From: Nitrosomonas europaea
Lineage (GTDB): Bacteria; Pseudomonadota; Gammaproteobacteria; Burkholderiales; Nitrosomonadaceae
Direction: 5' to 3'
Length of the DNA stretch: 32,000 nucleotides
Assembly (NCBI RefSeq): GCF_900167395.1
Contig: NZ_FUWK01000016.1
Location: 1 to 32,000, forward strand
Below are positions 9,302-28,746 of this stretch, piece after piece (within the stretch, counting starts at the first letter, position 1; each line of letters begins with the position of its first letter). The notes beneath the pieces are model-generated. The model did not search any database, had not been told where the DNA came from, and saw only the letters and a list, made by a program, of their open reading frames with translations. The translations under genes and the position numbers were made by a program.

Positions 9302-10516
9302 TTAATCAAATACTTCATCTCCTGTCGGTTCAAGGTGAGTGGTTTCATTCATCTCCTGACGGAATCGGGATAATTCATAATACATTCTAAAACGCGCCCG
9401 GTTGATATTACCCAACGGCCGGTGTTCAGGAAGGCAATGCCAGGGATTCATTTTCAGACGCTTGGCAAACTCGAACTGCGCATCCGAATCGAATTTCTGT
9501 CTGGGAATATGGATGGTAGCAGCAGGAATGAATGAAGAAAGCTTTTCCGGCCAGCGCACTGAGCTGTCCTCGATAGGCATCAAATGGGGATCAGTTTGTA
9601 CCTGGATCATGAGATCAAACTCGACATCTTTTTCATTGAGCGTCTTGATCATGTTCTCCCGTAAATAGTTGAACGGTGGTGTGCCAAAAGGCAAGCCAGG
9701 AATATGCCTTTCAACCTCTTTCGTTTTTGGCACAAATGAATACATCATTGCCTGGCCTTCACCCAGCAGATAAGGTGTACAGCTCCAGTAGCGCTGTCCC
9801 AGCGGATTGTACTGAGTTGCTGTCCACAGGCTCTGCATGAAAAAATCGAGCAAGTGAGAATCTTTCGGATTGAGAAAGTAATAAAGTGTCATATCCACCA
9901 GACTCCAGTATTGCAACTTGGCATTTTCCCGCGTGTTGGGCGTAACGAATGTCGCCCCTCCGCTGGTTGCAATGAAGTCTTGCGTCAATTTTTCTTCACT
10001 CATCAGTTTCTCGCCCGGCACCCCCATGATTTTCATTGCCATACTCATAAACCCGACATCATTAATATCAGCAGGCACATTCGGGCCCGGTCCGGAATAG
10101 CGGATATATGCCGGATAACTGCGCGGATTGGCAAAAATACCTTTGCGGCAATGCTCCGGCAGATCATCCCGGATAGTAATGGTGGCACGCACGATACCGT
10201 GTGTTTTGGTATTACCCCCTCGTTCATAACCTCCCGGTTTGAAGCGCCCGCGCATCTGATCCATCATGAGATCGATAATTTTGTTCAGGCTTTCTTCTTC
10301 GTCGGGATCAAATCTTTCTTCCGCCAGTTCAAGATCAGAATCCTTGTTCTTGCGTCGCCGATTAATCAGAAACTGGATCAATCTTGAGCCAGGTTCGCGA
10401 AAAAGATAATCCCACTGCGGTCGAAACCAGGGTTCCAATCGACGCTCGATGCGCAGCAACAAAATCAGGAAATTATGAATCGCTTTGAGTACCCGGTTTT
10501 TGATTGTCATGTTCAT
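9302..10516 (-). CDS. Catalase-related haem protein (mini-catalase / y4iL-like clade, the clade that contains allene oxide synthase- and hydroperoxide-lyase-type enzymes)
   Basis: 404-aa ORF. The distal-side motif GGYERGGNTKTHGIVRATITIRDDLPEHCRKGIFANPRSYPAYIRYSGPGP has the His in KTHG. The proximal-side motif is HRPLGNINRARFRMYYELSRFRQ (R-x-x-x-Y Tyr ligand pattern). The start ATG overlaps the DyP stop in an ATGA overlap at 10516-10513. Confidence 0.75.
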   Translation of the reverse strand: MNMTIKNRVLKAIHNFLILLLRIERRLEPWFRPQWDYLFREPGSRLIQFLINRRRKNKDSDLELAEERFDPDEEESLNKIIDLMMDQMRGRFKPGGYERGGNTKTHGIVRATITIRDDLPEHCRKGIFANPRSYPAYIRYSGPGPNVPADINDVGFMSMAMKIMGVPGEKLMSEEKLTQDFIATSGGATFVTPNTRENAKLQYWSLVDMTLYYFLNPKDSHLLDFFMQSLWTATQYNPLGQRYWSCTPYLLGEGQAMMYSFVPKTKEVERHIPGLPFGTPPFNYLRENMIKTLNEKDVEFDLMIQVQTDPHLMPIEDSSVRWPEKLSSFIPAATIHIPRQKFDSDAQFEFAKRLKMNPWHCLPEHRPLGNINRARFRMYYELSRFRQEMNETTHLEPTGDEVFD

Positions 10517-12039
10517 GATGAACCGCCGTTTCCGTTAGCAGGTAAAGCTGAAATGTATTTGAGTGCACGCAACCCGGGCATGAAAAAATATCCGCCACCC
10601 AGTACAGTCGTAAACTGCGGTAAATGACAGGTTTTTTGCATCGATCCGGATGAAGTGGGGCGATTGAAATGATCCGTGCTGTTACCGTTTATCATCGGTT
10701 CACGATTTCCCAGCAAGGGATCCGGCTCCTCCTGCAAGCCACCAAATTTGCCATTCACAATCCAGGCATTCTGGACAAATTCAAACTGTCGCCCTATGTT
10801 GGCTACCAGGCAGATGAACTGCAAACCACGTTCAGCAGCAGGTGCATCCGGTTTGACAGCGTCCCCCGGTGCAAGGACAGGGCCATAGCTGCGACCACGC
10901 CGCAACAAACGGTGAAAACGAGAAGAAGCAATGAGATCTTCCTCCGGTTTTTGTCCAAACCCCAGGATTTTAACCAACCGGTTTATCAGTGCGATCGCAC
11001 CGGTACCCGTTACAGCCGTCGGCAAATCGCCTGTCCGGGGATTGGCCCTGCGCACATGAGCACTGACTGGGCAATGATTCCCTTTCGGATCGAGGTCATA
11101 GGTAAAATGATTGCCATGATCCTTGGGCAAAATTCCCGGAATGTGCTCCGCAATCAAGGGCGTACCATTCCGTTCTCTGCCCACCATCGATGCGGCAAGC
11201 CGCTCCCGCTTCTCCGGGATGGAATCCGATACCTTGTCGAGAAATTGCCAGAAACCGGGAACATTCTGCTCCAGTTGCCGAAGTACCAGATACGTTCCAT
11301 TGCGGCCAAAATCTTTCCGTGCAGGATCATCTTTGGCATCCGGCAGATTCACGGCAAACCGGTCTTTTTGAAGGTCGATCAACGGTCGTGCAGTGTATTG
11401 CCCATATTCATTGGGATAACCAAGCACCATTTCGCCGGCAGCCAGTAAATTGGTGTAGCGGTCATTTGCATGTGAATCCGTATCATGCCGATCTGCCCAG
11501 TCAATCGCGGGCTGACTGATCCCATCCTCAAACCCGAAAGGATCAGTTCGCCCCATGTCCGAGGTGGGCAGATACTGCAGCAGCTGAAATGCCTGTGAGA
11601 AATACTCGCCTTCTACCGTTGCTTTCCAGGCATCAAGCCCCCCCTTTCTGGCATAAAGCAATAACAAGATATGCGGTACGTCTGCACCCTCCCCCCATTT
11701 CCAGTACTTCGGCGCATTGTGTCCAATATCACCGAGCCGACGAGAGCAGTTTTCATTTCTGGTCATGCCATGAACGAATTCATCGGAAAAACCATCAATA
11801 ATGGATTCATCAATGCCCAATGCACGCAAACCCTGCACGGAAAAAGCGATCTGCAGTGCCGTATCAGGCGGTGGATGAATTGCAATGGCACTGCTGACCG
11901 GCGCTGTGCTCAACCATTGTCTGGCGGCACTGGCATCCGCAATTTTCAGCAACATGAAGCAGGTATCAGCCAGCTTTCCGTATCCAAAACGCAGCAATCC
12001 CTGTACATCATCGAATTCAAAATTGCCGGATTCTTTCAT
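10513..12039 (-). CDS. Dye-decolorizing (DyP-type) haem peroxidase
   Basis: The N-terminus is FDDVQGLLRFGYG. The GxxDG motif is DPFGFEDGISQP. The proximal His region is PVSAHVRRANPR, followed by HRLLRRGRSYGP and ERGLQFICLVANIGRQFEFVQNAW. The start is taken at MKESGNF (ATG 12039), which has a GAGGGGG Shine-Dalgarno sequence directly after the upstream gene's TGA. The ORF is open to 12072. Confidence 0.85.
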   Translation of the reverse strand: MKESGNFEFDDVQGLLRFGYGKLADTCFMLLKIADASAARQWLSTAPVSSAIAIHPPPDTALQIAFSVQGLRALGIDESIIDGFSDEFVHGMTRNENCSRRLGDIGHNAPKYWKWGEGADVPHILLLLYARKGGLDAWKATVEGEYFSQAFQLLQYLPTSDMGRTDPFGFEDGISQPAIDWADRHDTDSHANDRYTNLLAAGEMVLGYPNEYGQYTARPLIDLQKDRFAVNLPDAKDDPARKDFGRNGTYLVLRQLEQNVPGFWQFLDKVSDSIPEKRERLAASMVGRERNGTPLIAEHIPGILPKDHGNHFTYDLDPKGNHCPVSAHVRRANPRTGDLPTAVTGTGAIALINRLVKILGFGQKPEEDLIASSRFHRLLRRGRSYGPVLAPGDAVKPDAPAAERGLQFICLVANIGRQFEFVQNAWIVNGKFGGLQEEPDPLLGNREPMINGNSTDHFNRPTSSGSMQKTCHLPQFTTVLGGGYFFMPGLRALKYISALPANGNGGSS

Positions 12040-12053
12040 GTATATACCCCCTC

Positions 12054-13358
12054 TCAGATCAGGCTGAGCCATTCACGGATTTCCGCATCATCCGACTGGC
12101 GAATTTCCACGCCTTGCCGAATACGGCTGTTGCGCACCAGATCAACGGCGGTCAGTCCCGGATAAGCCTTGTACCAGACCTCGGTAGGTATCTGATGCCG
12201 CCTTTGCGTGTATTTGAATGCGTGCTCACGCTGCGCGCCTTCCTTAATCATCCACCTTGTCGTCGGGTAGCCGACAGCATTGCTAAAGGTCAGGTTCAGC
12301 CCCCAGCCAACCTTGTTGATGAAATCATCCATATAGCTTTCGTGGCTGCCATCGTAATTACTGGCAAAGAAAACGCGATGGTTGTTATCCATGAATACCC
12401 AGCGGGCGAAATGGATCGTTTTGATGCGCGCAAGAAAGCCGTGATTGTAAACATGCCTGGCAAACCAGTCGGTCAGCAGGAGGATGAATTTAAAGGTCAA
12501 CAGGCGGAACAACCCTGGTTTTACATCCCCAAACACGCTGTATTGATTGCTGACATCCCAATCTTCCTGTTCGGAAAGCGCTTCGATATGTGAGTAGGCA
12601 GGCCGGATGAAGAGTTCAGGATCAGAGCGCTCCCGCTTTCTCAACCATAATGCAAAGAAGGGAGCAATCACCAATAGCAATGGAGAGAAAAGCAACAGGA
12701 CCAGCGGCACGCCGATTTTATGCAGCAGATTACGGGTTCTCCATTCACTCGGCGTTGGCTCCGGCGGGGAAAGCACAAGCCTGCCTTTATACTTTTCCAT
12801 TTCGACATGTGACAAAAGCTTTTGCCGTAGAGTATGAATATTTTCCCGCCCGACCTCTGCAACAATTTTCTGTAAACAGTCAGACAGGCTGTGATGTAGC
12901 GCTGCTTCTTCATGGATCTGCCTGACGGTTCGACCCACCCAGTTAACGTAATTGGCGCCGGGGCTGACATTACGCATCTTCATCCACTCCAGCAAATTCT
13001 GATTTCCCGTAGAGAAATCATCACAGTGGGAGAAGATTTTTGTCAGCCCCGATTCTGCACGTTCCACGAGCTCTGCCAGGAAAGTGTGCATATCCCCGTC
13101 GATGTCACCCAGGAAAGCAAGCATGGGCCGCCATGGCCGTGGTTTTACACCGAACTCTTTAATCTCTTGTAGCGTTTTTGCTTCTATGATCACAAACCGT
13201 GCAAAATGCAAGCGATCCAGTTTCCCGAATGGAATCAGGTCATTATCAGGATCAGCATGCCCGGGGATTGTATTCATCGAAGCGAGCAAGGTACGCAAAT
13301 CCTGCAGTTGCCCAACACGTACCGTCGCAGCAATCATGAAGGCAGATTGAGGTGTCAT
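12054..13358 (-). CDS. Hypothetical protein with one central TM helix and an internally duplicated HFAR[FW]V...DG module
   Basis: 434-aa ORF. The N-half has DRLHFARFVIIE...LAFLGDIDGDMHTFLAELV. The central hydrophobic helix is IGVPLVLLLFSPLLLVIAPFFALWL. The C-half has KTIHFARWVFMD...VFFASNYDGSHESYMDDFI. I do not recognise a named family. Its stop lies 12 nt before the DyP start. Confidence 0.6.
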   Translation of the reverse strand: MTPQSAFMIAATVRVGQLQDLRTLLASMNTIPGHADPDNDLIPFGKLDRLHFARFVIIEAKTLQEIKEFGVKPRPWRPMLAFLGDIDGDMHTFLAELVERAESGLTKIFSHCDDFSTGNQNLLEWMKMRNVSPGANYVNWVGRTVRQIHEEAALHHSLSDCLQKIVAEVGRENIHTLRQKLLSHVEMEKYKGRLVLSPPEPTPSEWRTRNLLHKIGVPLVLLLFSPLLLVIAPFFALWLRKRERSDPELFIRPAYSHIEALSEQEDWDVSNQYSVFGDVKPGLFRLLTFKFILLLTDWFARHVYNHGFLARIKTIHFARWVFMDNNHRVFFASNYDGSHESYMDDFINKVGWGLNLTFSNAVGYPTTRWMIKEGAQREHAFKYTQRRHQIPTEVWYKAYPGLTAVDLVRNSRIRQGVEIRQSDDAEIREWLSLI

Positions 13359-13391
13359 GGTCTTCTATCCCGAAAACAGTTGGACAGCGCG

Positions 13392-13847
13392 TTATTGGGT
13401 GTCGCTTTGCGTCAGGGCAAAATCCAGGACGCGCGTTTTGCCCCACCAGACTTTTCCAAGATAAACACCAGGCTCAACCTCGCGAATCTCATCGCGAATC
13501 ACTTTGGCAACGAATGAAGTTTTAGAGTAATCAATGACGATGGTGTCTTGCCCGTCGAGCCAACTCTTATCGCGATACACCTTTGCAACGATAAACGTCA
13601 AACCAAACGGCGTAATCTTGTTGACAAGGACACCCGCCTGACCGCCTGGACAAAATAAATCAAATACCTTGCCCTGCCAGGCAAAAAGGCGTGCAAAAGC
13701 AGCCACTGTTTTTGAAAAGAATGATCCCGCCAGAATTGCCGTGCCGCGTGTATCGCCTGCCGGAATATTTCCCGGCGTGGCATGACGATAGATTTCATCC
13801 AGTTCTTCACGTGATTTCCCCAACCAAGCTCTGACCGTATTATTCAT
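13392..13847 (-). CDS. Hypothetical 151-aa protein, first gene of the DyP/catalase-related operon
   Basis: The ORF has an AGGAG Shine-Dalgarno sequence 8 nt upstream of the ATG at 13847, and a 33-nt gap to the next gene. Its layout (G-rich N-part, ...AWQGKVFD..., then ...IVIDYSKTSFVAKVIRDEIREVEPGVYLGKVWW...) loosely recalls GXWXG/DUF4334-type small proteins. I cannot confirm that. Confidence 0.5.
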   Translation of the reverse strand: MNNTVRAWLGKSREELDEIYRHATPGNIPAGDTRGTAILAGSFFSKTVAAFARLFAWQGKVFDLFCPGGQAGVLVNKITPFGLTFIVAKVYRDKSWLDGQDTIVIDYSKTSFVAKVIRDEIREVEPGVYLGKVWWGKTRVLDFALTQSDTQ

Positions 13848-14230
13848 TTCAGTTACTCCTCATGGTTATACCAAAAACAAATAAACAGAATCGTCTGACA
13901 ACACGTGATCCGAAACAGGATGATCCAGGACAAGCACCTTACCTATTCAACAAGCTGAACCCCCCTCGCAGAAAAGAATCAATCTGTATCGAATTCAAAG
14001 ACCACACTCACAATAACTTTATTCCTGGTTTACCCAATATGCAATTGTTTGATCACCTCAAAACAGAAAAACAGGATTATGCTGAATAACTATTGGCTAT
14101 CTAATTTTCTCTAAAATTAATTCAAACATAGTAATACCCTCAGTAGAAAAAGGGATATATTATGAAAGCATACTGCAGTAATGGCTTCAAACTTTAGCTT
14201 GCCCTGATCAACATTTAACTGGAGATCATC

Positions 14231-16900
14231 ATGAAAACATGTAGAAATATCTTTTATTTCACCGGGATCAGCTTGGTTTTACTTCTTGCAGGATGTTCAG
14301 ATGATTTATCTCTGAAAATTGCAGCCGAATGTATCAAAGGTAATCACATCCAGTCCGGATCGGTTCTGGATGAAGCACAGTGTGTAAACAGATCTGCAGA
14401 GAGCTTTCCGGGAGCGGATGAAGATTATTTCAAGGATATGGATTATGGAATCAGCCAGACTCCTGATAAGGTAGTCGCTGCCCTTGAGCCCTTCGTGCCC
14501 GGCGTTTCACAGAATCCGGACGAGGCTGTCAAATCGATAGTCAGAGGCCGAAACAACTGGATCGTCTGGACGGGTGGCAACGACAAGTTCTGGGATTATA
14601 TGAGCGTGAAGAGCTTTGGCAGCTTCGATCTGCTGAAAGTGCTGTCGAATCATCCCAGGCTTGTGAAAAATCCGGGATACAGCCGCGACAACCGATGGCA
14701 CTGGTTTGGTCTGGTCAATGAACCGTGTTTCATAAAAAATACCGACGCGCAAGGCAAACTGGTCGGGCGTGAAGATCGTTTCGGCCTATATCTGGATGTA
14801 CGAGATCCGACCTGTCCTGCTGATCCGTTTGAAAATGAGGAAAAATATCCAGGCGTCAAAATTGGTGCGCGTGGCAAAACCGTGCCAGTGGGGTCTTATT
14901 ATGGTTATGCGACTGGTATTGTAGGTCTGCGCCTGTTTCCCAATCCCGATTTCAATGAAGCCGCAAAAAAACGCTGGGATGCCGAAAAATATTATTCTGA
15001 TCCGAATTACTACAATAATCCCAAACTGGTCAAACCGTACCGGGTGGGAATGGCTTGCAGTTTCTGTCACGTAGGACCCAACCCGACCAACCCGCCTGAA
15101 GATCCGGAAAATCCGCAGTGGGCCAATCTCAATTCCAATCCCGGGGCACAGTATTTCTGGTTCGACCGGGTATTCGCGTACGAGGCCGATAAAACCAGTT
15201 TCGCCTACCAGCATCTCCATACCAACCGGCCGGGTGCTTTGGATACCTCACTCATCTCCACCGACTACATCAACAATCCGCGTACCATGAACGCTGTTTA
15301 CAGCCTTCCTGCACGGATGCTGAATACCTTACGCTGGGGTGAAGAAAAATTGAACGGTGGCGAGCGGGATAACAAGCAGTTCAATCATTTCGACGAAATC
15401 CCTGCCGACAGCCCGCTCAGAGCCTTTTTCAAAGATCCGGATACGGTACTGACGCCGCGTGTGCTCAAAGATGGTGCGGATTCGGTCGGTGCACTGGGCG
15501 CATTGAATCGTGTTTTCATCAATATCGGTTTGTTCAGTGAAGAATGGCTACAGCACATCAATCCCCTGGTAGGAGGAAAGCCGTTTACACCTTTCCCGAT
15601 CAAAATAGCCGAACAGAATTCCAGCTACTGGCGGGCAACCGAGCAGCAGACGCTGGATGGCGCCTTGTTTTTTCTGGTTGCCACCCCTCCGGATCATTTG
15701 AAGGATGCTCCCGGGGGTAAACATTACCTGACCGATGATGAAGAAACTCTGGAACATGGTAAGAAGGTATTTGCCGAGCATTGTGCTGCTTGCCATTCGA
15801 GTAAATTACCGGACGAGGCAAACAAGTTTTTCCCTGATAAAGGGTGTGTCGGCCCTGATTACTTGAAGTGCTGGAATCAGTATTGGCACTGGACCAACTC
15901 ACCCGAATTCAAGGAGAAAATGACAAAGCTGGTCATGGAAGAAGATTTTCTCAAAGAGAATTTCCTGTCCACGGAGTTACGCATCCCGGTAACTCTGCTG
16001 GAAACCAATATTTGTGCGTCGATCGCGACCAATGCCATCCAGGGAGATACCTGGGACAATTTTTCTTCGACTTCCTACAAAAATTTGCCTTCGGTAGGAA
16101 AAGCACTGATCCATCATCCAGTTACACGCAAACCTGCAGATCACGTCATGCCAGACGGGGGACGTGGTTATATTCGTCCACCTTCCCTTTCGAGCATTTG
16201 GTCTACAGCACCATTTTTACTGAACAATACGGTCGGGAAATTTTATCCCTCGGGTTCAGTGGAAGATCGTATGAAATCTTTCGAGATCAGTATCGAGCAG
16301 CTGCTATGGCCCGAAAAACGCTACTGCGATCAGAAAGATCTGTACTACTACGGACAGGATAAAGAAGGAAAAGGCTCCTATGCCTATGATTCGGAAGCAG
16401 CAGGCAGTTGCGAAGGAAAAACCTATCTGACCCGATCCGGCAAAGAAGTACCGGGTATTATCGACCGGACGACAGAAAGGAGTGAGCTAAAAGTACCGAA
16501 AGGTTACCTGCCATGGTATGTCAGAATTCTCCCTATTGGTGATGGGTTGGAGCTTGGTCCATTCCCTGAAGGCATTCCTGTGAATCTGGTTTCCAATACC
16601 AATATGGAAATGAACTGGGGGCAGCGGCTTTCTCTTTCGTGGGATCTTGCAAGGGCTATCGGGTGGGATATCTTTGATTTGTGGAAAGCCCAGGAACATC
16701 CTGAAAGCATGACTGATGAAGAGCTGCGCAAAATATTGAGCGGGATAGTCGATCCTTTACTGGGCGTTAACAAATGTCCGGATTTTGTCGTTAACCGCGG
16801 GCATTATTTCGGCACAGACTACCTCCCGGCAGAAGAAGGCAGAACAGCGCTCGATGATAACGATAAACGTGCTTTGATCGAGTTTCTCAAGACCATGTAA
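14231..16900 (+). CDS. Large di-haem c-type cytochrome lipoprotein (unknown family)
   Basis: 889-aa ORF with a GGAG Shine-Dalgarno sequence 7 nt upstream. The lipoprotein signal is MKTCRNIFYFTGISLVLLLAGC (lipobox LAGC). There are two CxxCH haem-c motifs: CSFCH (15056-15070) and CAACH (15782-15796). Confidence 0.7.
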   Translation: MKTCRNIFYFTGISLVLLLAGCSDDLSLKIAAECIKGNHIQSGSVLDEAQCVNRSAESFPGADEDYFKDMDYGISQTPDKVVAALEPFVPGVSQNPDEAVKSIVRGRNNWIVWTGGNDKFWDYMSVKSFGSFDLLKVLSNHPRLVKNPGYSRDNRWHWFGLVNEPCFIKNTDAQGKLVGREDRFGLYLDVRDPTCPADPFENEEKYPGVKIGARGKTVPVGSYYGYATGIVGLRLFPNPDFNEAAKKRWDAEKYYSDPNYYNNPKLVKPYRVGMACSFCHVGPNPTNPPEDPENPQWANLNSNPGAQYFWFDRVFAYEADKTSFAYQHLHTNRPGALDTSLISTDYINNPRTMNAVYSLPARMLNTLRWGEEKLNGGERDNKQFNHFDEIPADSPLRAFFKDPDTVLTPRVLKDGADSVGALGALNRVFINIGLFSEEWLQHINPLVGGKPFTPFPIKIAEQNSSYWRATEQQTLDGALFFLVATPPDHLKDAPGGKHYLTDDEETLEHGKKVFAEHCAACHSSKLPDEANKFFPDKGCVGPDYLKCWNQYWHWTNSPEFKEKMTKLVMEEDFLKENFLSTELRIPVTLLETNICASIATNAIQGDTWDNFSSTSYKNLPSVGKALIHHPVTRKPADHVMPDGGRGYIRPPSLSSIWSTAPFLLNNTVGKFYPSGSVEDRMKSFEISIEQLLWPEKRYCDQKDLYYYGQDKEGKGSYAYDSEAAGSCEGKTYLTRSGKEVPGIIDRTTERSELKVPKGYLPWYVRILPIGDGLELGPFPEGIPVNLVSNTNMEMNWGQRLSLSWDLARAIGWDIFDLWKAQEHPESMTDEELRKILSGIVDPLLGVNKCPDFVVNRGHYFGTDYLPAEEGRTALDDNDKRALIEFLKTM

Positions 16901-17002
16901 TTCTGTAACGGCGGGTAATCCAACATGCAGCCGGAATATCCGCCGTATTTCTCAGTTTACAGATCACGACGCTCTACCCGTTTTCTGCTCCAGGAGATAT
17001 CT

Positions 17003-18949: not shown

Positions 18950-19036
18950 TCACTTATCAGCTTCTGTAAACCCTGAGCATTTCGAGTTCGATTTTAACGC
19001 CGCAATGCACCCTTCAGTGAGATATTGAACGGGTTC

Positions 19037-21898
19037 TTACCGAGTAAATACTTCATCCCCCTCGGCACCGCGCCGGGGTTTCCATTGAGTGCTGTAGTAT
19101 TCTCCGCGATCTCGCGCCCAGGGATCGAACAGGTTGACCACACCCTGAAGCTCATCCGCCAGCTCGGGCAACGTTCTCAACAGGACTCGCTTCAGCGGAG
19201 AAACCGGTTGCCGGTGACCATTGTACGTCCCCTCTTCCATTATTTCCGGGCCCGGCCCATTGTGCATTACCCACTCCACTCCCAGAATGCTATAGAACTC
19301 CGGGCGAAAACTCGAAGTAAAAAACCGGTCGCTGAAGAGTCTGCGTGAAGCATTGAGAACGAACACGACGAACTGGGTTTCTGAAATGGCAAAACCGTGC
19401 GGCCGTTTGAATTCCGCCAGCCAGCCGACGACCGTATCGACATCCTCGATATTGTCTACAAGACTGCCGTCGGGATGCCCCAGACAATCGTTAATGGGTG
19501 ATTTGTCGTCATTCAGCTGGGCGTTTGTGATCAGTCTGGATGCATCGCACCGGTGCTGTCCGTATACCTCACGTAATGTCCGCACGAGCTGCTCCTGTTC
19601 GCGACGAACAGACGAATCTCCGGGCACGCGCGGATCGATGAAATCATCGAAGCTGGTCAATTGCTTCAACCCGTACTGCCGACGAAACTCGTTATAGCGC
19701 GGAATGCCCCGCTCCCGGTCGCGAATGAGATCGAGTGCAGCAATGTCGATTTGCCGGGTGGATGATTGCAGATGAGGGATCTTCAGGTTTTGCAAAAACC
19801 GCGGATGATTCTGGAGCGTCAACGCACCTGCCCGCTGACGACCCATGCTGAGCGCCCAGTTTGCCAGGCCTTTCTGCCGCATCGCCCCGGTGGCTTTACC
19901 GCGAAAGGTATCGATGACAGGTATTTTTTGCCGAATGATATTCGGATTGTTATGCCATTCACGGTATTCGATCAAATCCGGCAACAAAGGATGCAGTCGA
20001 TATACCGTGACGAACTCTTCAGGAAAACTGAAAGGAGAACCAAAATGGTTGACTCCGCCATTGATATCTTCGTTGCGGGTGAGTGTCCAGATATCCTTTC
20101 TGTTGCGATCGACCAGGGAATAGAGCGGCGCGCCTTCATAGCGATGATTGCCTAACCCGAAAATACCTGCTCCACCAGCGAAAGCGGCATGAAGACTGTT
20201 GCTGATACCTTCGGTATCGTCCAGCTGGCGGATAATTTCTCTCAGTACCTCGGATACCGCCGCATGTTCGTGAAATAACCCATGCCAGTTGGCGTTCATC
20301 CCCCGATACAGCGGCTCGTTGTACAGCAGCTGCGTCGTCCACTCAAGGGTATGGATCTTGGCGATCTCGGCGGCAATCACCAGTCGGGCTACATTGAATA
20401 ATTCGCCTGCCGTGACATCCCGGTAACGAATGATCATCTCAGGGTGCGCCGGGTTCCTCAAGCCGCTGTCAGCATCAGGTGTTTTGGCTGCCTGCTTGCG
20501 GAATTCCTCAACAAAAGCATTGTGCTCTCTGGCAAAGACATTATGAAAAAAACTCAATCCAATGGACCAGTTGTCCGGAAAAGCGGCTGCTTCCTGACCT
20601 GACCATGCCGGATCGATCGGATCATCCACTTCAAAGGTCGGCAAGTATCCGGATTCATCGCCTCTATCCACGCTTTCTCTTACATGAATCAGCGCTAATT
20701 TGGCAGCATCCTCGGGATCCCGTTTCACCCGCTGACTGGAGCGCTCGTCATAGCCATAAAGCTGTGAGGCATCCCACCAGGCTGTCACATGATTACGTGT
20801 CGTTTTCGGCGCGCGTGTGCGATAAAGGTGGCCGTCGTGCATGAACGATGCGGGCGGTGTGTCATCATCGATCGGTGCAACATGGATTCTGTCACCCGGC
20901 CGGCAGCCCAGCTGGCGGGCTTCCTTCGCTGCCAAAGGCTGTTCGATGTTGTCAATTCGCTGAGTTATACAACCCACCGTCATCCACGCTGACTGGTCAG
21001 ATTCCTCTTCCACATGAGAAAACCAGTCATGGGTCATGAACTGAATCCAGAAAGCTGCCAGCACATTCAGGGCCGGTGCTTTTTTGTAATCACATGCGAA
21101 TTTCTCAAGATCGCCAGATAACTCGTCGTCGTTCCGGCATTTATCAGGCTGTGACTGCGTGCGCGTAAACAATTTCCGGCTGATGACCTGCGGATCGGGT
21201 TTCAGCAAACCCAATCGATCTCCATGACGATTCCTGGCCATCTCATCGAGGCCCAGATCAGGAAAGGTCGTATCGAACTGGACATTGCGCGCAAAGATCT
21301 GATGAGTCGAGCCCATCAACGGATTGTAGATATCGTTACAGATACCGGTAACAGTACGAAAACGAATCAATTCGCCACTGCAAACCTGATGTTCCTGATT
21401 ATGCTCAACGTCCTTGTAACGAGGATGAGTTGGCGGTAACTGCATTTCCGGCCAGACTTGTAAAACAGGGCCTGCCCTGCCATCACGGCCTGTCACATAA
21501 GCCTGGTAAGTACCGCTATTGTCAAAGAGATTGAATTTGATCAGCTCGATCCGCTGCAACTCCAGTTCATAAAGCGCACTGTTGATGCCACGTTCATTCG
21601 GACCGAAAAACGAGCTGGCCAATGGCGAAGAAGATAATGACAAGCTGTCACCTGTTCCCCAGAAATTTGGCCAATCCAGCCAGGGATTCCGGTTGAGCGC
21701 CACAGCATGATCTCCACCAAGACAATGCGCCCGTCTCCCGGTGACCTTACCGAGAAACCGCTGTTCTCTCGTCTTGGCAACGTGCTGAATGTCACCTTGC
21801 ATGAGCACAGAGAGACAGGATATTTCAGGTTCCAAAGCATCACATCCGCTCAAAAGCAGTAATCCTGTCAGTACGATAACTATCGGAAAGTGGCTCAT
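19037..21898 (-). CDS. Haem peroxidase of the peroxidase-cyclooxygenase superfamily, alpha-dioxygenase/PIOX-like, lipoprotein
   Basis: 953-aa ORF. The lipoprotein signal is MSHFPIVIVLTGLLLLSGC. It carries FRTVTGICNDIYNPLMGS (animal-haem-peroxidase type motif), the distal motif AAFWIQFMTHDWFSH, then FAREHNAFVEEF and IAKIHTLEWTTQLL. The Tyr/proximal-His motif EEFVTVYRLHPLLPD corresponds to plant alpha-DOX ...YRMHSLLPD and COX ...YHWHPLL. Confidence 0.85.
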   Translation of the reverse strand: MSHFPIVIVLTGLLLLSGCDALEPEISCLSVLMQGDIQHVAKTREQRFLGKVTGRRAHCLGGDHAVALNRNPWLDWPNFWGTGDSLSLSSSPLASSFFGPNERGINSALYELELQRIELIKFNLFDNSGTYQAYVTGRDGRAGPVLQVWPEMQLPPTHPRYKDVEHNQEHQVCSGELIRFRTVTGICNDIYNPLMGSTHQIFARNVQFDTTFPDLGLDEMARNRHGDRLGLLKPDPQVISRKLFTRTQSQPDKCRNDDELSGDLEKFACDYKKAPALNVLAAFWIQFMTHDWFSHVEEESDQSAWMTVGCITQRIDNIEQPLAAKEARQLGCRPGDRIHVAPIDDDTPPASFMHDGHLYRTRAPKTTRNHVTAWWDASQLYGYDERSSQRVKRDPEDAAKLALIHVRESVDRGDESGYLPTFEVDDPIDPAWSGQEAAAFPDNWSIGLSFFHNVFAREHNAFVEEFRKQAAKTPDADSGLRNPAHPEMIIRYRDVTAGELFNVARLVIAAEIAKIHTLEWTTQLLYNEPLYRGMNANWHGLFHEHAAVSEVLREIIRQLDDTEGISNSLHAAFAGGAGIFGLGNHRYEGAPLYSLVDRNRKDIWTLTRNEDINGGVNHFGSPFSFPEEFVTVYRLHPLLPDLIEYREWHNNPNIIRQKIPVIDTFRGKATGAMRQKGLANWALSMGRQRAGALTLQNHPRFLQNLKIPHLQSSTRQIDIAALDLIRDRERGIPRYNEFRRQYGLKQLTSFDDFIDPRVPGDSSVRREQEQLVRTLREVYGQHRCDASRLITNAQLNDDKSPINDCLGHPDGSLVDNIEDVDTVVGWLAEFKRPHGFAISETQFVVFVLNASRRLFSDRFFTSSFRPEFYSILGVEWVMHNGPGPEIMEEGTYNGHRQPVSPLKRVLLRTLPELADELQGVVNLFDPWARDRGEYYSTQWKPRRGAEGDEVFTR

Positions 21899-21953
21899 CT
21901 GAAATCCAGAAGCTCTACCAGGCTATTAGAAATTCATACGAATCCCGCGAGAA

Positions 21954-23621
21954 TCAAACCGTTACCCCATTCGGGATGATTCTTGGATTCATCCGGTCAT
22001 AGGGAACAGGTCGGCTGCTGTTTCTTTGATCGATTCGTCCTTCTATTTCCTGGAGCCGTTTTCTGAAGCGCTCTATGACATCACGTGCTGCCGGGTCAAA
22101 TTGCCGCAACGGATACTGGCCGATACGATTGACAGTAAAATTTGTCTGGAAATAAGTCCAGGTTTGCGAATATGCCGCCCGGAATGCGGGTTGAAACTTC
22201 AACAGCCCGTCTGCATCCATTTCCGCACCTTTCCCCACCGGGGGAGGTGCATAAGCCGAATGAGGCATATTGGGAACAAAACCCGGATATTTGTACTGGT
22301 TGAAATGAATGCACGAATGGAATGCCGTACATAGAAAAATGACATGGCCAATAGTCTCGGCCAGTTCCTGTCTGGATGCAAACCTGGCGGGAAACCCGGG
22401 AATTCTGCCGCGATCCCGGGCGCCGATATCATGCGCCCAGGCCTGAATCTCGCAATCTTCAGCCACATCCCCATCCGATTGATAGCAGACATCGATATAT
22501 TCTGTGGCGAAGTGCTGGATTGCATTCCATAACAACACACCATCATCACGATACGGATAAAAGAGATCAGGGTTATCGACTTCCCGGCTGGCAATATCGT
22601 TAGGGAAGGCCGATGCCCTGAAGTCAAAACTTGTCATACCATTGGCCATGCACTGAGTCGTCGCATCATAATCTCCGGCAAACAGCTCACCATACCGGCC
22701 GGGGCGCCCTTTTCGATCCCGCAGGAAGGTGTGCTGATGATTGACGTTGAGTGTATGTCGAAGATGCGGATTCAACAGCACACAGAGCGGATGAGATTTA
22801 TAAAGCTGCCGGCGTGAGGCCATGATAATGGCTTCCATCACATAATGAATGCGGGTGGCATGGGTAACCAGTATATGGTGATTACCATCTGCGACCTGGG
22901 CAAACGTTTTGGCTGCCAGCCACAGATTGCCATCGTTTGGAGTATAAATGGGATTGTCAGGCCCGGCATCCTGATACAGCTGGATGGCAATCGGCCGCAA
23001 TATGCCATCTGCTTGCAGAAACAGCACCACAATCGGGGTTGTGACATATTGTTTACGGCCGCCATCGATTTGTCCGGGATTGCGCTGCAATATCTCCAGA
23101 TCTGCATAATCCAGGATATACACACGCTTTTGCGTAATTGCAGTCGCATAGTCAGTTTCATCAACATACTTTGCAAAAACACGCTGGATTTCAGATTCCG
23201 GTAATTTCTGTGGCAGCGGATGCTGAGAAGTCACGGCGCGCAATACGACAGGATTTACCCCGATGACACGTTGCAGGCCAAATATCAGATCCTGCTGAAA
23301 GTTATCGACCAGTGCCGGATTCGGAGGGCTAAACGGATAAAAAATATAGTCGCGGTAGCTTTCCATCGGTTTGCCAAGCAAATAGCGCATATACGTCACC
23401 AGCAGACTCGGCAGACTTGGAATCAGCTGCAGCAAATTGATCCCGCCACGCAGCCAGTATCCAGGCCCTGGTATCTCCCGACATGGCAGTTTGCGTACCA
23501 CAGCAATCGTATTGGCATACTCGTAGGCATATTGATACTGCGCCTGTCTTCGCAGCAGATAATTTTTCCTATTCTCTACCGTGCGTCTGTTTTCTTCCTG
23601 TTGTGGCAGCTTGTTCATCAT
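21954..23621 (-). CDS. Lipoxygenase, short form without N-terminal PLAT domain (mini-LOX)
   Basis: The motif WLAAKTFAQVADGNHHILVTHATRIHYVMEA contains the H-x4-H metal ligands (His codons at 22877-22875 and 22862-22860). FHSCIHFNQYKYPGF contains the H-x3-H ligands. The C-terminal ...RIIPNGVTV corresponds to the canonical IPNSISI carboxylate ligand. The start is taken at the ATG at 23621 (AAGGAG Shine-Dalgarno sequence 7 nt upstream). The ORF is open to 23651. Confidence 0.9.
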   Translation of the reverse strand: MMNKLPQQEENRRTVENRKNYLLRRQAQYQYAYEYANTIAVVRKLPCREIPGPGYWLRGGINLLQLIPSLPSLLVTYMRYLLGKPMESYRDYIFYPFSPPNPALVDNFQQDLIFGLQRVIGVNPVVLRAVTSQHPLPQKLPESEIQRVFAKYVDETDYATAITQKRVYILDYADLEILQRNPGQIDGGRKQYVTTPIVVLFLQADGILRPIAIQLYQDAGPDNPIYTPNDGNLWLAAKTFAQVADGNHHILVTHATRIHYVMEAIIMASRRQLYKSHPLCVLLNPHLRHTLNVNHQHTFLRDRKGRPGRYGELFAGDYDATTQCMANGMTSFDFRASAFPNDIASREVDNPDLFYPYRDDGVLLWNAIQHFATEYIDVCYQSDGDVAEDCEIQAWAHDIGARDRGRIPGFPARFASRQELAETIGHVIFLCTAFHSCIHFNQYKYPGFVPNMPHSAYAPPPVGKGAEMDADGLLKFQPAFRAAYSQTWTYFQTNFTVNRIGQYPLRQFDPAARDVIERFRKRLQEIEGRIDQRNSSRPVPYDRMNPRIIPNGVTV

Positions 23622-23686
23622 GTGACGCTCCTTTAAAAGGATAAAATTCATCCAGTTCCCGGATTACTTCACTGCGACATCCTCAT

Positions 23687-25288
23687 TCAAGCAACAGCAG
23701 AGGTTCTGAAACTTGCAATAACCGTATCGCTGTCCCTGACATTACGTTTAACGATATCTGCAAGCAGACTGGTTTCTTCGATGATCGATTGCCCGACGGA
23801 CGAGAAGGTCTTTTCATTATGTACGTAGCCCGATACCAGTGGATTGGTCAGAGCATGGGTAAATGCATCGTAACCCACCATCCGCACCATCAGGCGCCCC
23901 AGACTAAACCCTTCATCGTGATCTTCCGCAAAGATACCGACCTGCCACTCCAGGTCATCGATGCGATCGTTATACAGTTCCTTCAACTCCCGTTGCAGCG
24001 CCGGATCTGCTGTCAATTCCTCAAAACTTCTCAAACGCGGCATGCTGAATGCCTGGCGGTAATCATTGAATGAGCGCAGTTTGGCCTGACGCCCCATCTC
24101 TACGCTGCGTTCCATGACACTCCGGTTATCCGCACCCACAGGCAATGGATCAAAAAAGAACTGAGGCGTGTTGTACAAACCGACACGGCCGGCTTTTTGC
24201 TGCGAGGCTGCTGATATCATGGTTCCAATACCATATTGGTGTGTGACCAGCGCGGTATTGTTGCGAAACTCATCGAGCGTGTATCGCTGATCACCGACAA
24301 AGTAGTATTCCGGCACCATCGAATGCCACCTGTAGAGCAGATTGAATTCCAGAGAAATCCAGTTGGTGCGATACCAGCGCTGCCTTTCCGCCATCCCCGG
24401 TGTAGGATCGAGCGTAAAACCAAATTGTGTAAAATGCGAAACATAATCCTGCAACACCACTTTAATCAGCAGCACGATCATGATGTTTCTGGCTGTCTGG
24501 AACAGACGTTCATCATCCCAGGTGGGATGCGCTTCTTTGAGCACGTCACAGATCCGATTGTGTTCACGCAACATGATAGTATTCATGAGGGTATAGCCAA
24601 TCGATGAATTACCATGTTCCAGCCCGGTGGCAAACATACGCTTCAACCGTTCTTCCGGGACATTGTCAAAAACAAATTCCAGAACAGCGCGGGGATGCAG
24701 ATTCTCAAATTCCCTGTCAGCAAACACCCAATTATCTGCAGTCGTTTCTTCTACATTGAAAAGGTAAGGAGGAAAAATTTCTCCATCGATGACCTGATAT
24801 TTCAGCTTGCCATCCTTTTTCAACCGCAGCAAATGCGTGATGTCTTCACGCAAGCCATAGATCTGGCACAGATCGATTTCGTGATTTGATGTATTTTTCC
24901 GGCGATCGAAAAAATCTGTCCGCAGAAAACTATCGGTGAACCATTGAGCGAAAAAAGAAAACAGGATGCTGGTATCAACTGACGGGATTTCCCTGTTTTC
25001 TTTTCTGCGCCACAGATTGACAACACTTTTCAGATCCGGAAGATTCTGTTCTCCTTCCGCTTCCGGCAGATGTCGTCCGGTGAATGTCCGGTCTGTCAAT
25101 GCCTGCCATGTGGTATAGGGAGCGGCCATGGAGAATGGCCTGGGACGGGGGTTTGTGGCATAGGCCTGCCAATTGATAAAAGTATCGCTGATCCAGCGCC
25201 GCAACCACGTTATGCGCGAGGCGACTCGACTGATCCATGGGAATCGGTTCACAAGCCGAAAAATGATCTGAAAAAAGAATTCATTCAT
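23687..25288 (-). CDS. Cyclooxygenase-like haem protein (prostaglandin-endoperoxide synthase homologue, catalytic domain only)
   Basis: 533-aa ORF with an AGGGGA Shine-Dalgarno sequence. There is near-colinear similarity to animal COX motifs: LFSFFAQWFTDSFLRTD (COX: FFAQHFTHQFFKTD), HEIDLCQIYG, TIMLREHNRICDVLKEAHPTWDDERLFQTARNIMIVLLIKVVLQDYV (COX: [47 protein letters not shown]), and EFNLLYRWHSMVPE (COX: EFNQLYHWHPLMP). There is no signal peptide or EGF-like region. Confidence 0.88.
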   Translation of the reverse strand: MNEFFFQIIFRLVNRFPWISRVASRITWLRRWISDTFINWQAYATNPRPRPFSMAAPYTTWQALTDRTFTGRHLPEAEGEQNLPDLKSVVNLWRRKENREIPSVDTSILFSFFAQWFTDSFLRTDFFDRRKNTSNHEIDLCQIYGLREDITHLLRLKKDGKLKYQVIDGEIFPPYLFNVEETTADNWVFADREFENLHPRAVLEFVFDNVPEERLKRMFATGLEHGNSSIGYTLMNTIMLREHNRICDVLKEAHPTWDDERLFQTARNIMIVLLIKVVLQDYVSHFTQFGFTLDPTPGMAERQRWYRTNWISLEFNLLYRWHSMVPEYYFVGDQRYTLDEFRNNTALVTHQYGIGTMISAASQQKAGRVGLYNTPQFFFDPLPVGADNRSVMERSVEMGRQAKLRSFNDYRQAFSMPRLRSFEELTADPALQRELKELYNDRIDDLEWQVGIFAEDHDEGFSLGRLMVRMVGYDAFTHALTNPLVSGYVHNEKTFSSVGQSIIEETSLLADIVKRNVRDSDTVIASFRTSAVA

Positions 25289-25458
25289 AGCGCATCCCCT
25301 TTTTGTCAGTGATAACTTACATTTCCTTCAGCTGCTGGAACTTTGGTCTTAGTGTGTATGCGGCTGCCTGGTAGCTGTTTTTTCTCCCTTTCTCAAAGTG
25401 CACTCAAAAATGAAAAGTGCGATTCATCAAATCCTGTTCTCAAGACAAAGCAATCAGC

Positions 25459-26961
25459 TCATCCCTGCGTCACCCGAACAGAATAAGCACCTGTCCCGGA
25501 TGGCGAGTAGTGTCTTACACGAACGAAATATTCACCCGGAGAAAGTTGACGGCGGATCAGCGCGTTGAAGGAGATGCCTGAATCATCGTTGCTGGCGATT
25601 TCCGGTATCTGGCTGTTCGGGCCATGCAAGCTCATGAAGGTATCCGTTGTCCCATTCGTCTGGATGGTATAAAAATCTCCCGTAGTAACATTAAACCGGT
25701 ACACATCGCTTTCATTCGCTGCAGAAATCGATGCATCGATGCCCACACCATTCACGATGAGCTCGGGGATCGGAACCGGGCCGGGACCAGGGCCTGGAGT
25801 GGCACTGACTGCGCGCACGCCAACCGCATAATTTCCCGTACTGTTCGGGCTGTACAGACGAACGCGCAGAAAATAAGTACCTGCAGACAGATTGCGGTTG
25901 ATTTGTGCATTGAAACCCTCGCCTGCATCATCATCTGATGCCACTTCAAAATTCGGATCATTGGGGCCGAACAGAGTCATGAACGTATCGGATGATCCGA
26001 GGGTATACATCGTATGAGCACCGAAGGCCGGGACTTCGAAACGGAAAACATCGGTTTCTCCCGGCACGCCGATAGCAGCTGCTATCGGATCGGCTCCAAC
26101 GACAATGAGCGGTATTTCCGGCTGAGGTTGCGGCTGAGGAGCAGCATCATCATATACGATACCCAGCGCTGCACTGTCCAGCACATCGATAGGACGCGAC
26201 CCGACCTGTCCTGAAGGGGTACTACCCATTGGATCAGTCAGATTTTGACCAAAAGGGCCGCCACTGGCTGGTAAATAACCTTGATTCGGGAAGCGCAGTT
26301 GCCATTCATGCCAGATTTTATCCACCATACAATGGTGCATGAAAAACACCGGATCATTCGGGGAAGTCATCGGCAGCATGGACCCCCCCACCCAGACATG
26401 ACCACGGTTGTGCAGATTGGGGCCAATCCAGCCTTCCAGCTGATTACGGAAACTTGGATTGCTGTTCATGTTCCACGGCGATGTATCATAGGGCGTAACG
26501 GCCATGACTTGATTGATTGCCGCTTGTGTGGGTAAGGTTGGCAAGCCGTTCTGACCGAAAGCGCGCATCAGCGGACCTGCTGGCAATCCGCTGGAATTGA
26601 TGACAGTCCATTGCCCGGAGCGGAATGGACCGGTACGGACAACACCACCGGCATCTCCATTGCCACCCAGCAAATCATCATTCCACATGGAGGCATTGGC
26701 GCTACCTGATGGCCAGTTCCAGTAAGGTATCCCGAGATTCGGGTTACCCGAAACGCGCTGCAGTTCCAGTTCGAGATCATAAATAAAGCGGCGGTGCCAC
26801 GGCAAAAAAGCAGAGCATCGGTGAATTGCACTCATATTGGCGTTCGCATGTCTGAGCACGAATCGATCATAGATGCCTTCGGCCTTCAACACGCGAATGG
26901 CAGCAACGAATTCTGCCCGTTCTGCAGCAGTCAGTGTATTTGCATCTTTTCTGATAGCCAT
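25459..26961 (-). CDS. Tyrosinase (type-3 copper oxidase) with two C-terminal PPC (pre-peptidase C-terminal) domains
   Basis: The CuA region is AIHRCSAFLPWHRRFIYDLE. The CuB region is LHNRGHVWVGGSMLPMTSPNDPVFFMHHCMVDKIWHEWQ. A PQPQPQPE linker is followed by PPC repeat 1 (about 25771-26115, ...ETDVFRFEV...DTFMTLFGPN...ASDDDAG...GTYFLRVRLYS...). A PGPGPGP linker is followed by PPC repeat 2 (about 25462-25770, ...ESDVYRFNV...DTFMSLHGPN...ASNDDSG...GEYFVRVRHYS...). The start is taken at the ATG at 26961 (GGAGG Shine-Dalgarno sequence). The ORF is open to 26976. No signal peptide is visible. Confidence 0.9.
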   Translation of the reverse strand: MAIRKDANTLTAAERAEFVAAIRVLKAEGIYDRFVLRHANANMSAIHRCSAFLPWHRRFIYDLELELQRVSGNPNLGIPYWNWPSGSANASMWNDDLLGGNGDAGGVVRTGPFRSGQWTVINSSGLPAGPLMRAFGQNGLPTLPTQAAINQVMAVTPYDTSPWNMNSNPSFRNQLEGWIGPNLHNRGHVWVGGSMLPMTSPNDPVFFMHHCMVDKIWHEWQLRFPNQGYLPASGGPFGQNLTDPMGSTPSGQVGSRPIDVLDSAALGIVYDDAAPQPQPQPEIPLIVVGADPIAAAIGVPGETDVFRFEVPAFGAHTMYTLGSSDTFMTLFGPNDPNFEVASDDDAGEGFNAQINRNLSAGTYFLRVRLYSPNSTGNYAVGVRAVSATPGPGPGPVPIPELIVNGVGIDASISAANESDVYRFNVTTGDFYTIQTNGTTDTFMSLHGPNSQIPEIASNDDSGISFNALIRRQLSPGEYFVRVRHYSPSGTGAYSVRVTQG

Positions 26962-26993
26962 GAGAATTTCCTCCATGTTTTTATCTGCAGGAA

Positions 26994-27751: not shown

Positions 27752-27806
27752 CGCATCTTTCCCTGATAGCCCACACGCAGAGACAACCCAACGCTTCATT
27801 TTTACG

Positions 27807-28565: not shown

Positions 28566-28746
28566 GATAGCCACCTCACCGAGTGTTGTGCCCTCTACAG
28601 ATACCATGTTCCTGATGTGTATCGCATCCGCACCGGGCTAATAACAGGCCCACTTCATCTTGCCCAACCCGGGAGACAGAGTGGCCTCTCACGTTACCTG
28701 CAAAATATTTTTACCTCCATTTTTCTAAAAAACACATAAAAAGATG

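Follow-up and report, generated by a model that had tools for sequence, protein, structure and literature searches.

The window analyzed here, the first 32,000 nucleotides of Nitrosomonas europaea contig NZ_FUWK01000016.1, contains at positions 9302–26976 a block of ten adjacent genes, eight of which encode oxidative enzymes, that is, enzymes using oxygen or peroxide. Labeled A to J in coordinate order, the first seven, A–G, belong to a conserved gene association whose members recur together, in many orders and on either strand, across several bacterial phyla. We tentatively propose that this block represents, in N. europaea, a widespread and modular system associated with the membrane that would oxygenate free fatty acids and process the resulting hydroperoxides and aldehydes, a proposal to which we give a little less than an even chance. 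It is favored because the families that recur next to G, an α-dioxygenase-like protein, make or transform fatty-acid hydroperoxides in other organisms. On the chromosome of N. europaea ATCC 19718 (AL954747.1) the block lies at approximately 1.34–1.37 Mb, where the H protein has an exact match. The initial annotation of the window had counted twelve genes in this interval; both the open reading frame (ORF) listing and the NCBI gene calls on AL954747.1 give ten (lengths in amino acids, aa):

A, 9302–10516, minus strand, 404 aa: putative catalase-fold (catalase-related) heme protein; last gene of the predicted D-C-B-A operon
B, 10513–12072, minus strand, 519 aa: DyP-type peroxidase
C, 12054–13358, minus strand, 434 aa: uncharacterized protein with one long hydrophobic segment (residues 210–240)
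D, 13392–13847, minus strand, 151 aa: uncharacterized protein; first gene of the predicted D-C-B-A operon
D/E intergenic region, 13848–14230, 383 bp: separates the divergent D-C-B-A and E-F operons
E, 14231–16900, plus strand, 889 aa: di-heme c-type cytochrome lipoprotein of an uncharacterized family
F, 16925–18949, plus strand, 674 aa as annotated: GMC flavoprotein oxidoreductase
G, 19037–21898, minus strand, 953 aa: α-dioxygenase-like heme lipoprotein
H, 21954–23651, minus strand, 565 aa: mini-lipoxygenase without PLAT domain
I, 23687–25288, minus strand, 533 aa: cyclooxygenase-like heme dioxygenase
J, 25459–26976, minus strand, 505 aa: tyrosinase with two PPC domains

The clustering of eight such enzymes among ten adjacent genes is far beyond chance: if 2% of all genes encoded enzymes of this kind, an illustrative figure, the binomial probability would be 1e-12. 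The eight identities proposed in the initial annotation (catalase-related, DyP, di-heme cytochrome c, GMC, α-dioxygenase-like, mini-lipoxygenase, cyclooxygenase-like, and tyrosinase) are borne out by domain, PDB, and motif evidence, with A as the weakest case; the profile and structure searches matched the families of B, F, G, H, I, and J, and A was reached by way of a weak Foldseek model. Its statement that the block holds no regulator, transporter, lipase, or fatty-acid activation gene likewise agrees with our domain scans of the block proteins, in which no such domain was found.

Gene neighborhoods were compared around three anchors. For G, which has 481 relatives among GTDB representative genomes, the best 80 of these, one genome per species, were analyzed with 10 kb on each side and all ORFs clustered; for A, 80 metagenome loci were used, 32 of them with wide context, and for E, seven loci. 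Near G, a protease-FGE gene of the Nitrospira lineage was found at 14 of the 80 loci, D at 12, B at 11, C and A at 10 each, F at 9, E at 8, and a lipoxygenase (LOX) at 5. Apart from the Nitrospira gene, then, the most frequent neighbors of G are the window's own genes; cytochrome P450 genes (4/80 loci) and RoxA-like di-heme cytochromes (3/80) also occur there. Tallied by module, A–D genes are represented at 11 of the 80 loci and E and/or F at 8. The initial annotation had asked for such a comparison and had reckoned with homologues that are scattered and never syntenic. What we find is that A–G occur all together, in changed order, in five further Nitrosomonas species, and that subsets of the cluster recur in Desulfobacterota, methanotrophs, Methylomirabilota, Binatia, Casimicrobiaceae, and others. 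At two loci (L033 and L099) the genes follow each other as D C B A E F G on a single strand. The order G>A'>D>C>B>A, in which A' is a second catalase-fold paralogue described below, is found in Desulfuromonadales, Desulfobulbaceae, and Methyloglobulus; it is present, and with it the G>A' adjacency, at about 20 loci. E>F>G occurs in Methylomirabilales and Binatia, and a divergent lipoxygenase directly follows G in two Gammaproteobacteria.

The other two anchors give a similar picture. Among A-anchored loci with enough flanking sequence, B is adjacent to A in 55 of 60, C lies next to B in 46 of 47, and 42 of 44 contain D; 28 of the 32 loci with wide context also carry G and/or E/F and/or a lipoxygenase-cyclooxygenase (LOX-COX) gene (G at 19, E/F at 10, LOX-COX at 4). 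All seven E-anchored loci contain F and/or A–D genes, with a GMC gene paired to E in six, G in two, and patatin phospholipases in two. These patatin-like phospholipase genes lie directly after E-F in L172 (14663–17527) and beside the A–D operon in L175 (2030–3043). One E-anchored locus continues after F and E with genes for two RoxA-like cytochromes, another GMC-like protein, and a SnoaL-P450. The arrangement B<C<A<D< followed by E>F>G> occurs on two unrelated contigs; elsewhere the genes run E F A C B or E D C B A, and in Nitrosospira multiformis the order is LOX> A<B<C<D< FAD_binding_4> tyrosinase> E> F>. In Nitrosospira loci L169 (6838–9912) and L093 (2541–5662), a FAD_binding_4 (VAO-type) gene and a short tyrosinase gene stand just upstream of E-F, and G is not found within 10 kb.

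A–G therefore form a real conserved association, made up of a D-C-B-A operon, an E-F pair, and G. Because the same families re-associate in many orders and orientations, the shuffling of gene order and strand across phyla argues for selection on proximity, and hence for functional coupling, rather than for an inherited order. Judging from taxon names, an impression without statistics, homologues of A–D, E, and G come disproportionately from ammonia oxidizers, Nitrospira, methanotrophs, and Methylomirabilota. Many of those lineages carry copper membrane monooxygenases.

The spacing and orientation of the genes point to at least four transcription units. Intergenic distances are −4 bp between A and B, where the start of A overlaps the stop of B, −19 bp between B and C, and 33 bp between C and D; E and F are separated by 24 bp, G and H by 55 bp, and H and I by 35 bp. 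J lies 170 bp from I, and going upstream from J through orf71, K, and L the successive gaps measure 17, −4, and 7 bp. The predicted units are D-C-B-A; E-F, divergent from D; I-H-G, convergent with F; and L-K-orf71-J. A consensus scan gave no more promoter-like sites than expected by chance and a modest excess of terminator-like sites (29 versus 17.4 expected), and neither kind of site was of help in defining transcripts. Within the D/E intergenic region, an alignment reveals an island at approximately 14022–14062 (TTATTCC..GTTTA..AATRTGCAA) that is kept in Nitrosomonas mobilis, Nitrosomonas communis, and metagenome copies and may be a regulator site. A FNR-like half-site in the same region was discarded, as it is not conserved in the alignment.

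Such an operon structure, with its two orientations, would also suit a mosaic of independent modules (D-C-B-A, E-F, G, H-I, and J) brought together by shared regulation, a common need for heme, or a history of horizontal transfer. In most loci from Nitrospira and Acidobacteriota G is found by itself, D-C-B-A stands alone at L144, L159, and L164, the LOX and COX genes are confined to ammonia oxidizers, and the tyrosinase gene is nearly confined to N. europaea, all of which a mosaic would accommodate. It would have difficulty, however, with partners that have found each other again in many orders and on different strands across phyla, which is hard to explain without functional coupling, and with the presence of at least one other module at 28 of the 32 A-anchored loci with wide context. 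We regard a mosaic as distinctly unlikely.

A fatty-acid substrate for the proposed system is suggested by G. Its An_peroxidase domain is recognized at 2.9e-67, and its best PDB matches are the α-dioxygenases (α-DOX) from rice (4kvj, 3.3e-54) and Arabidopsis (4hhr, 2.7e-51), with true peroxidases following at just 2e-4. The phmmer alignment of G and 4kvj pairs wiqfmtHdw with wiqfmvHdw, vYrlH with vYrmH, and asRRl with asRRl. His290, Tyr633, His636, and Arg852/853 of G thereby occupy the α-DOX positions and are invariant in 17 homologues; they correspond to what we take to be the catalytic set of the rice enzyme, that is, the distal His157, Tyr379, the proximal His382, and the carboxylate-binding Arg558/559. 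Since all α-DOX signature residues, including the carboxylate-binding arginines, are kept, the most economical reading is that G would be an oxygenase acting on C2 of fatty acids. A lipobox with Cys19, also invariant in homologues, precedes the enzyme.

H matches the Lipoxygenase Pfam family at 8.7e-58. Its best PDB match is the 569-aa Cyanothece enzyme 5med (5e-73; H residues 26–564 against residues 16–568), and it aligns to residues 145–690 of 5-LOX, thus skipping the PLAT region. The chains of coral fusions of allene oxide synthase (AOS) and LOX match H at approximately 1e-60 in the PDB search. His259/His264, His445/His449, and the C-terminal Val (Ile in Nitrosospira-type copies), which we take from family knowledge to be the metal ligands, are kept in six close orthologues of 79–88% identity. 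That N. europaea has a LOX was already on record (review PMC11941309).

I also belongs to the An_peroxidase family (5.5e-42), with prostaglandin H synthase 2 (PGHS-2) as its best PDB match (4e-70). Its motif EFNLLYRWH is invariant in orthologues, and the Tyr319 and His322 it contains are presumably equivalent to Tyr385 and His388 of COX. The position of the distal His207 of COX, however, is occupied by Asp119 (FAQWFTDSF) in all seven orthologues, and the alignment begins only at COX residue ~60, without a signal peptide or an EGF domain. Because the distal His is replaced and both the EGF domain and the signal peptide are absent, the sequence identifies I as a COX-like dioxygenase and not a prostaglandin H (PGH) synthase; an unusual peroxidase site is probable. 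Across related dioxygenases of bacteria and fungi, just Tyr348, Tyr385, and His388 are retained (PMC13049297). H and I travel as a pair, adjoining G in N. europaea, N. mobilis, and N. communis, and adjoining A, on the opposite side of the cluster, in Nitrosospira-type contigs. With 5med, PGHS-2, and 4kvj as the best PDB matches, all three of the dioxygenase families that the initial annotation had listed (LOX, COX, and α-DOX) are indeed present in the block.

A, named "catalase family protein" by NCBI, has no match in Pfam, the Catalase family included, nor a sequence match in the PDB. In a Foldseek search with a weak structure model (pLDDT 42), the top matches were the Mycobacterium avium catalase-related protein 3e4y (2.6e-7) and coral AOS 1u5u (3.1e-7), followed by dozens of true catalases with E values of 1e-7 to 1e-5; TM-scores, from a weak model and a shallow alignment, were ~0.33. 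A diverse local profile of the family gave a weak, in-register hhalign match to E. coli KatE (E 0.0026, 61 columns), and a shallow profile gave none. There is no detectable similarity between A and the AOS sequence (E 1.6). Thr105-His106 and Arg375-x3-Tyr379-x6-Arg386 are invariant in homologues, and the position placed opposite the catalase distal Asn by the weak KatE alignment is Ser, Gly, or Cys in A and its homologues. With moderate confidence, we assign A as a catalase-fold, presumably Tyr-ligated heme protein of the catalase-related kind. In many genomes (L060, L064, L071, L075, L081, L100–L155) G is directly followed by the paralogue A', 27–35% identical to A, which keeps the proximal Arg..Tyr and has Val or Ile in place of A's distal His. 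The pairing of a dioxygenase with a neighboring catalase-related protein, on which the initial annotation had drawn, is thus found elsewhere, in the approximately 20 G>A' loci; in N. europaea itself, A belongs to another operon than G and H, at distances of 8.5 and 11.4 kb, respectively.

B is a DyP peroxidase, matching DyPs in the PDB at 6e-40 to 1e-21 and TIGR01413 at 6e-19. It contains the GXXDG motif with Asp183 (FGFEDG), the proximal His339 (AHVRRANPR), and the distal Arg391/392 (LLRRG). For C and D, no recognizable domain was found in Pfam or NCBIfam, nor, for C, in the PDB, and neither resembles DyP or the other. The C family comprises 2530 representative clusters in a full-library search. 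It includes natural C-DyP fusions (P0396, P0488, P0485, P0469, and P0434) as well as D-C fusions with D at the N-terminus of C (P0371 and P0399; 49–51% identity to D). Because these fusions exist, D, C, and B very probably form one membrane-tethered DyP complex, in which C is likely to be the membrane anchor or partner of DyP. In a further protein, P0392, an endonuclease/exonuclease/phosphatase-family (EEP) domain is fused to C.

E has a lipobox (LLAGC, Cys22) and two heme-binding motifs, CSFCH at 276 and CAACH at 518, which are invariant in 27 homologues. Together with Cys19 of G, this bears out the two lipoboxes, and with them the predicted anchoring of part of the system in the envelope, described in the initial annotation. 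Beyond the heme motifs, E resembles little: it matches NF040606, a di-heme cytochrome c peroxidase subfamily, at 4e-12 over residues 503–685 only, scoring 46 bits against a cut-off of 150, and the RoxA-like Pfam family at E 0.026, and when its profile is compared with those of E. coli Ccp and the RoxA-like neighbors, hhalign aligns the heme motif alone. No PDB or Foldseek match was obtained for E, the model used being weak (pLDDT 48). Because no profile match spans both heme domains, we do not file E in the superfamily of cytochrome c peroxidase, MauG, RoxA, and FadCcp. Its partner F contains GMC_oxred_N (1.7e-20) and GMC_oxred_C (2.3e-31) and scores under the cut-offs for choline dehydrogenase and related equivalogs. 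Since stop codons interrupt its N-terminal extension (16925–17002, 26 codons) in close relatives, the true start of F is probably Met27, at window position 17003, with the first 26 annotated codons untranslated. A twin-arginine translocation (Tat) plus lipobox signal was seen only on the distant F orthologue of L080.

These data also bear on whether the block might instead be a general defense island of the envelope against peroxide or reactive oxygen and nitrogen species, in which DyP, A, the di-heme cytochrome, and the heme peroxidases would do no more than clear H2O2, organic peroxides, or peroxynitrite and for which fatty acids would not be the intended substrates. All heme families present here contain true peroxidases, E has its weak similarity to the di-heme peroxidase subfamily, and the organisms are those with a very oxidative metabolism: largely nitrifiers and methanotrophs for the homologues of A–D, and Nitrosomonas and Nitrospira for those of G. 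A defense island would not, however, account for the retention in G of the dioxygenase-specific Tyr633 and the carboxylate-binding Arg pair, nor for A, which has the Thr-His distal pair typical of coral AOS and no aligned catalase Asn; A' even lacks the distal His, and the 46 bits of E fall well short of the family cut-off of 150. Nor are thiol peroxidases, superoxide dismutase, or an OxyR/PerR regulator among the recurrent neighbors, which are instead P450s, lipoxygenases, RoxA-like cytochromes, and patatin phospholipases. A defense role for the block is therefore unlikely in our estimate.

J matches the Tyrosinase Pfam family at 2.3e-42 and PPC at 2.5e-21, and it is not a MelC2 equivalog (NCBIfam score 252 against a cut-off of 450). 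In the Nitrosospira cluster, a different tyrosinase, ~30% identical to J, lies between the FAD_binding_4 oxidase and E; because of this, there may be a loose, ammonia-oxidizer-specific tie between tyrosinases and the cluster. Of the three ORFs next to J, orf71, K (197 aa), and L (266 aa), none has a known domain, and two have signal-like N-termini. Farther upstream, within 26994–29454 (minus strand), M (235 aa) contains Kazal inhibitor and SpvB-like segments.

A tyrosinase beside or inside the cluster, in both N. europaea and Nitrosospira, brings to mind the enzymes of wood-decay fungi, and in that style the block might attack phenolic, humic, or lignin-like material or Mn(II), with the GMC oxidase supplying H2O2 to DyP and the heme peroxidases and the tyrosinase acting on phenols. 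B is indeed nearest to fungal-type (class D) DyPs and Amycolatopsis DyP2 in the PDB search, relatives of G occur in Candidatus Manganitrophus genomes, and animal-type heme peroxidases are known bacterial Mn oxidizers, which oxidize Mn directly or via superoxide (preprint 10.1101/2024.12.25.630300). However, signal prediction finds export signals on E and G only, with none on A, B, D, F, H, I, or J; B, F, and J would thus be unable to reach extracellular polymers. G, moreover, is far nearer to fatty-acid α-dioxygenases (3e-54) than to any peroxidase (2e-4), and nearly all cluster versions surveyed are without a tyrosinase, so that we judge an attack on phenolics or Mn(II) very unlikely.

How the proposed fatty-acid system might operate can be outlined as follows. 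Free fatty acids would arise in the envelope, either from the cell's own phospholipids, as the patatin phospholipases in other taxa suggest, or from an external source. G, anchored on the periplasmic face, would bind their carboxylate through Arg852/853, and its heme and Tyr633 radical would yield a 2-hydroperoxy fatty acid, which would decay to CO2 and an aldehyde shorter by one carbon. In ammonia oxidizers, H and I could oxygenate unsaturated acids at allylic or bis-allylic positions. Tyr-ligated A, and in other taxa A' as well, would rearrange or reduce the hydroperoxides, and the membrane-tethered D-C-DyP complex could take them as its oxidant. F might oxidize alcohol or aldehyde products, and E would either feed or remove electrons on the periplasmic side or be a RoxA/FadCcp-like oxygenase itself. 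Overall, the system would serve to detoxify or turn over membrane-active fatty acids and lipid peroxides, or it might produce signals. For nitrifiers, one may speculate that inhibitory free unsaturated fatty acids are removed; linoleic and α-linolenic acids from Brachiaria inhibit ammonia monooxygenase (AMO) and hydroxylamine oxidoreductase (HAO) (PMC9011059).

Several observations weigh against this proposal. Approximately 60 of the 80 G loci, mostly from Nitrospira and Acidobacteriota, do not have these partners, and H and I join the cluster only in ammonia oxidizers. J is the weakest member: among the surveyed loci its gene is found only on N. europaea-type contigs (L001–L005) and in no other lineage's cluster, and it probably belongs to a separate operon with orf71, K, and L (26994–28607). 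Judged by gene layout, then, the block is not a single unit; it comprises several modules in its four or more transcription units. Of the one dedicated system put forward in the initial annotation, what stands is A–G, recurrent across phyla; the operon structure, the restriction of H and I, and the peripheral position of J speak against extending it to the whole block. The predicted topology is split as well, E and G being exported lipoproteins and A, B, D, F, H, and I having no signal peptide, so that a linear pathway would need intermediates that cross or reside in the membrane. For the same reason, the suggestion in the initial annotation that a cytochrome c serves as electron sink for the flavoprotein is weakened in its direct form: with no export signal on F in N. 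europaea and a start probably at Met27, direct transfer to a periplasmic cytochrome c is doubtful. Nitrifier membranes contain mainly C16:0 and C16:1, which leaves the LOX and the COX-like enzyme without an obvious endogenous polyunsaturated substrate. Finally, confidence in the structure models is low for both A (pLDDT 42) and E (pLDDT 48), and every family represented here also includes plain peroxidases.

A bolder form of the fatty-acid proposal is that A–G constitute a phylum-spanning lipid-oxidation machine, built on the C and D families, as a membrane-bound DyP complex, and on E proteins of 850–900 aa, that would destroy membrane-active unsaturated fatty acids in ammonia, nitrite, and methane oxidizers. 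We consider this improbable; if true, such a machine would set the sensitivity of nitrifiers to the plant-derived biological nitrification inhibitors linoleic and linolenic acid. Even in its narrower form, the proposal would point to testable candidates for the means by which nitrifiers withstand inhibitory free fatty acids, a matter of interest for biological nitrification inhibition in agriculture. Because N. europaea can be cultured and genetically manipulated, the proposal can be tested directly.

In GC content, the block matches its flanks. No defense-system matches were returned by PADLOC, and no Rfam families or tRNAs were detected. Outside the block, at 5802–6905 (minus strand), prfB contains the classic programmed +1 frameshift site (GGAGG TAT CTT TGA C, ~6815–6832), owing to which the ORF lister begins a 347-aa ORF at an internal TTG. 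At 452–1474, ~8 kb away from the block, there is a YhgA-like (Transposase_31) gene, and a β-carbonic-anhydrase-like protein with a twin-arginine-type N-terminus is encoded at 3675–4253. In the metagenome copy L001 (JGI 3300014786 contig; 99–100% amino acid identity), J, I, G, and the A–D region are split into several called genes, reflecting either assembly indels or gene decay.

In the searchable literature, which leaves out most subscription journals, we found no description of the conserved A–G cluster, the D-C-DyP complex, or the E family, and no functional or expression study of the N. europaea genes (including NE1236–NE1241). Bacterial oxylipin enzymology rests on few isolated cases, namely, the LOX and diol synthase of Pseudomonas and the LOX, dioxygenase, and catalase-related pairs of cyanobacteria. 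A cluster conserved in nitrifiers, methanotrophs, and uncultured bacteria would broaden it and would give a context to three large uncharacterized families, of which C alone has more than 2500 representative clusters.

Comparison of the components with known systems gives likenesses and differences in each case. G has the fold of the plant and cyanobacterial α-dioxygenases (4kvj, 4hhr), together with their distal and proximal His residues, catalytic Tyr, and Arg pair. It differs from them in its lipoprotein signal, an extra N-terminus of ~170 aa, and insertions, which bring it to 953 aa compared with ~620–650 aa, and in being part of a conserved neighborhood that has not been described for the known enzymes. 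FadCcp and the rubber oxygenase RoxA are periplasmic di-heme c-type proteins that act as oxygenases on unsaturated lipids; E is likewise a di-heme c lipoprotein, and RoxA-like genes recur beside G and E elsewhere. In P. aeruginosa, the di-heme cytochrome c enzymes of the PA2077/PA2078 operon (FadCcp) are an oleate dioxygenase and a diol synthase (PMC4496055). Unlike them, E is much larger (889 aa) and matches these families solely around the heme motif.

The combination of A and H is reminiscent of the coral and cyanobacterial AOS-LOX fusions (1u5u, 3dy5), in which a catalase-fold protein with a Thr-His distal pair is joined to a lipoxygenase; among the structural matches of A, 1u5u ranks second. 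In N. europaea, however, the genes for A and H are not fused: ~11 kb lies between them, they belong to different operons, and the similarity of A to AOS does not extend to the sequence. A further parallel is the system of Nostoc punctiforme, in which, according to the account of Brash et al. (2014) given in PMC13049297, a COX-like linoleate 10S-dioxygenase and a catalase-related 10S-hydroperoxide lyase are encoded separately. As far as that account goes, both systems combine a dioxygenase of the COX/α-DOX superfamily with a small Tyr-ligated catalase-fold protein encoded nearby, and in many relatives of our cluster A' directly follows G. Set against the same account, the cluster described here differs in that G is a 953-aa lipoprotein of the α-DOX type and in that a DyP complex, a di-heme c lipoprotein, a GMC protein, and two uncharacterized families are added. 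The enzyme pairings thus have precedents, and the cluster would be a variant among bacterial oxylipin-type gene clusters.

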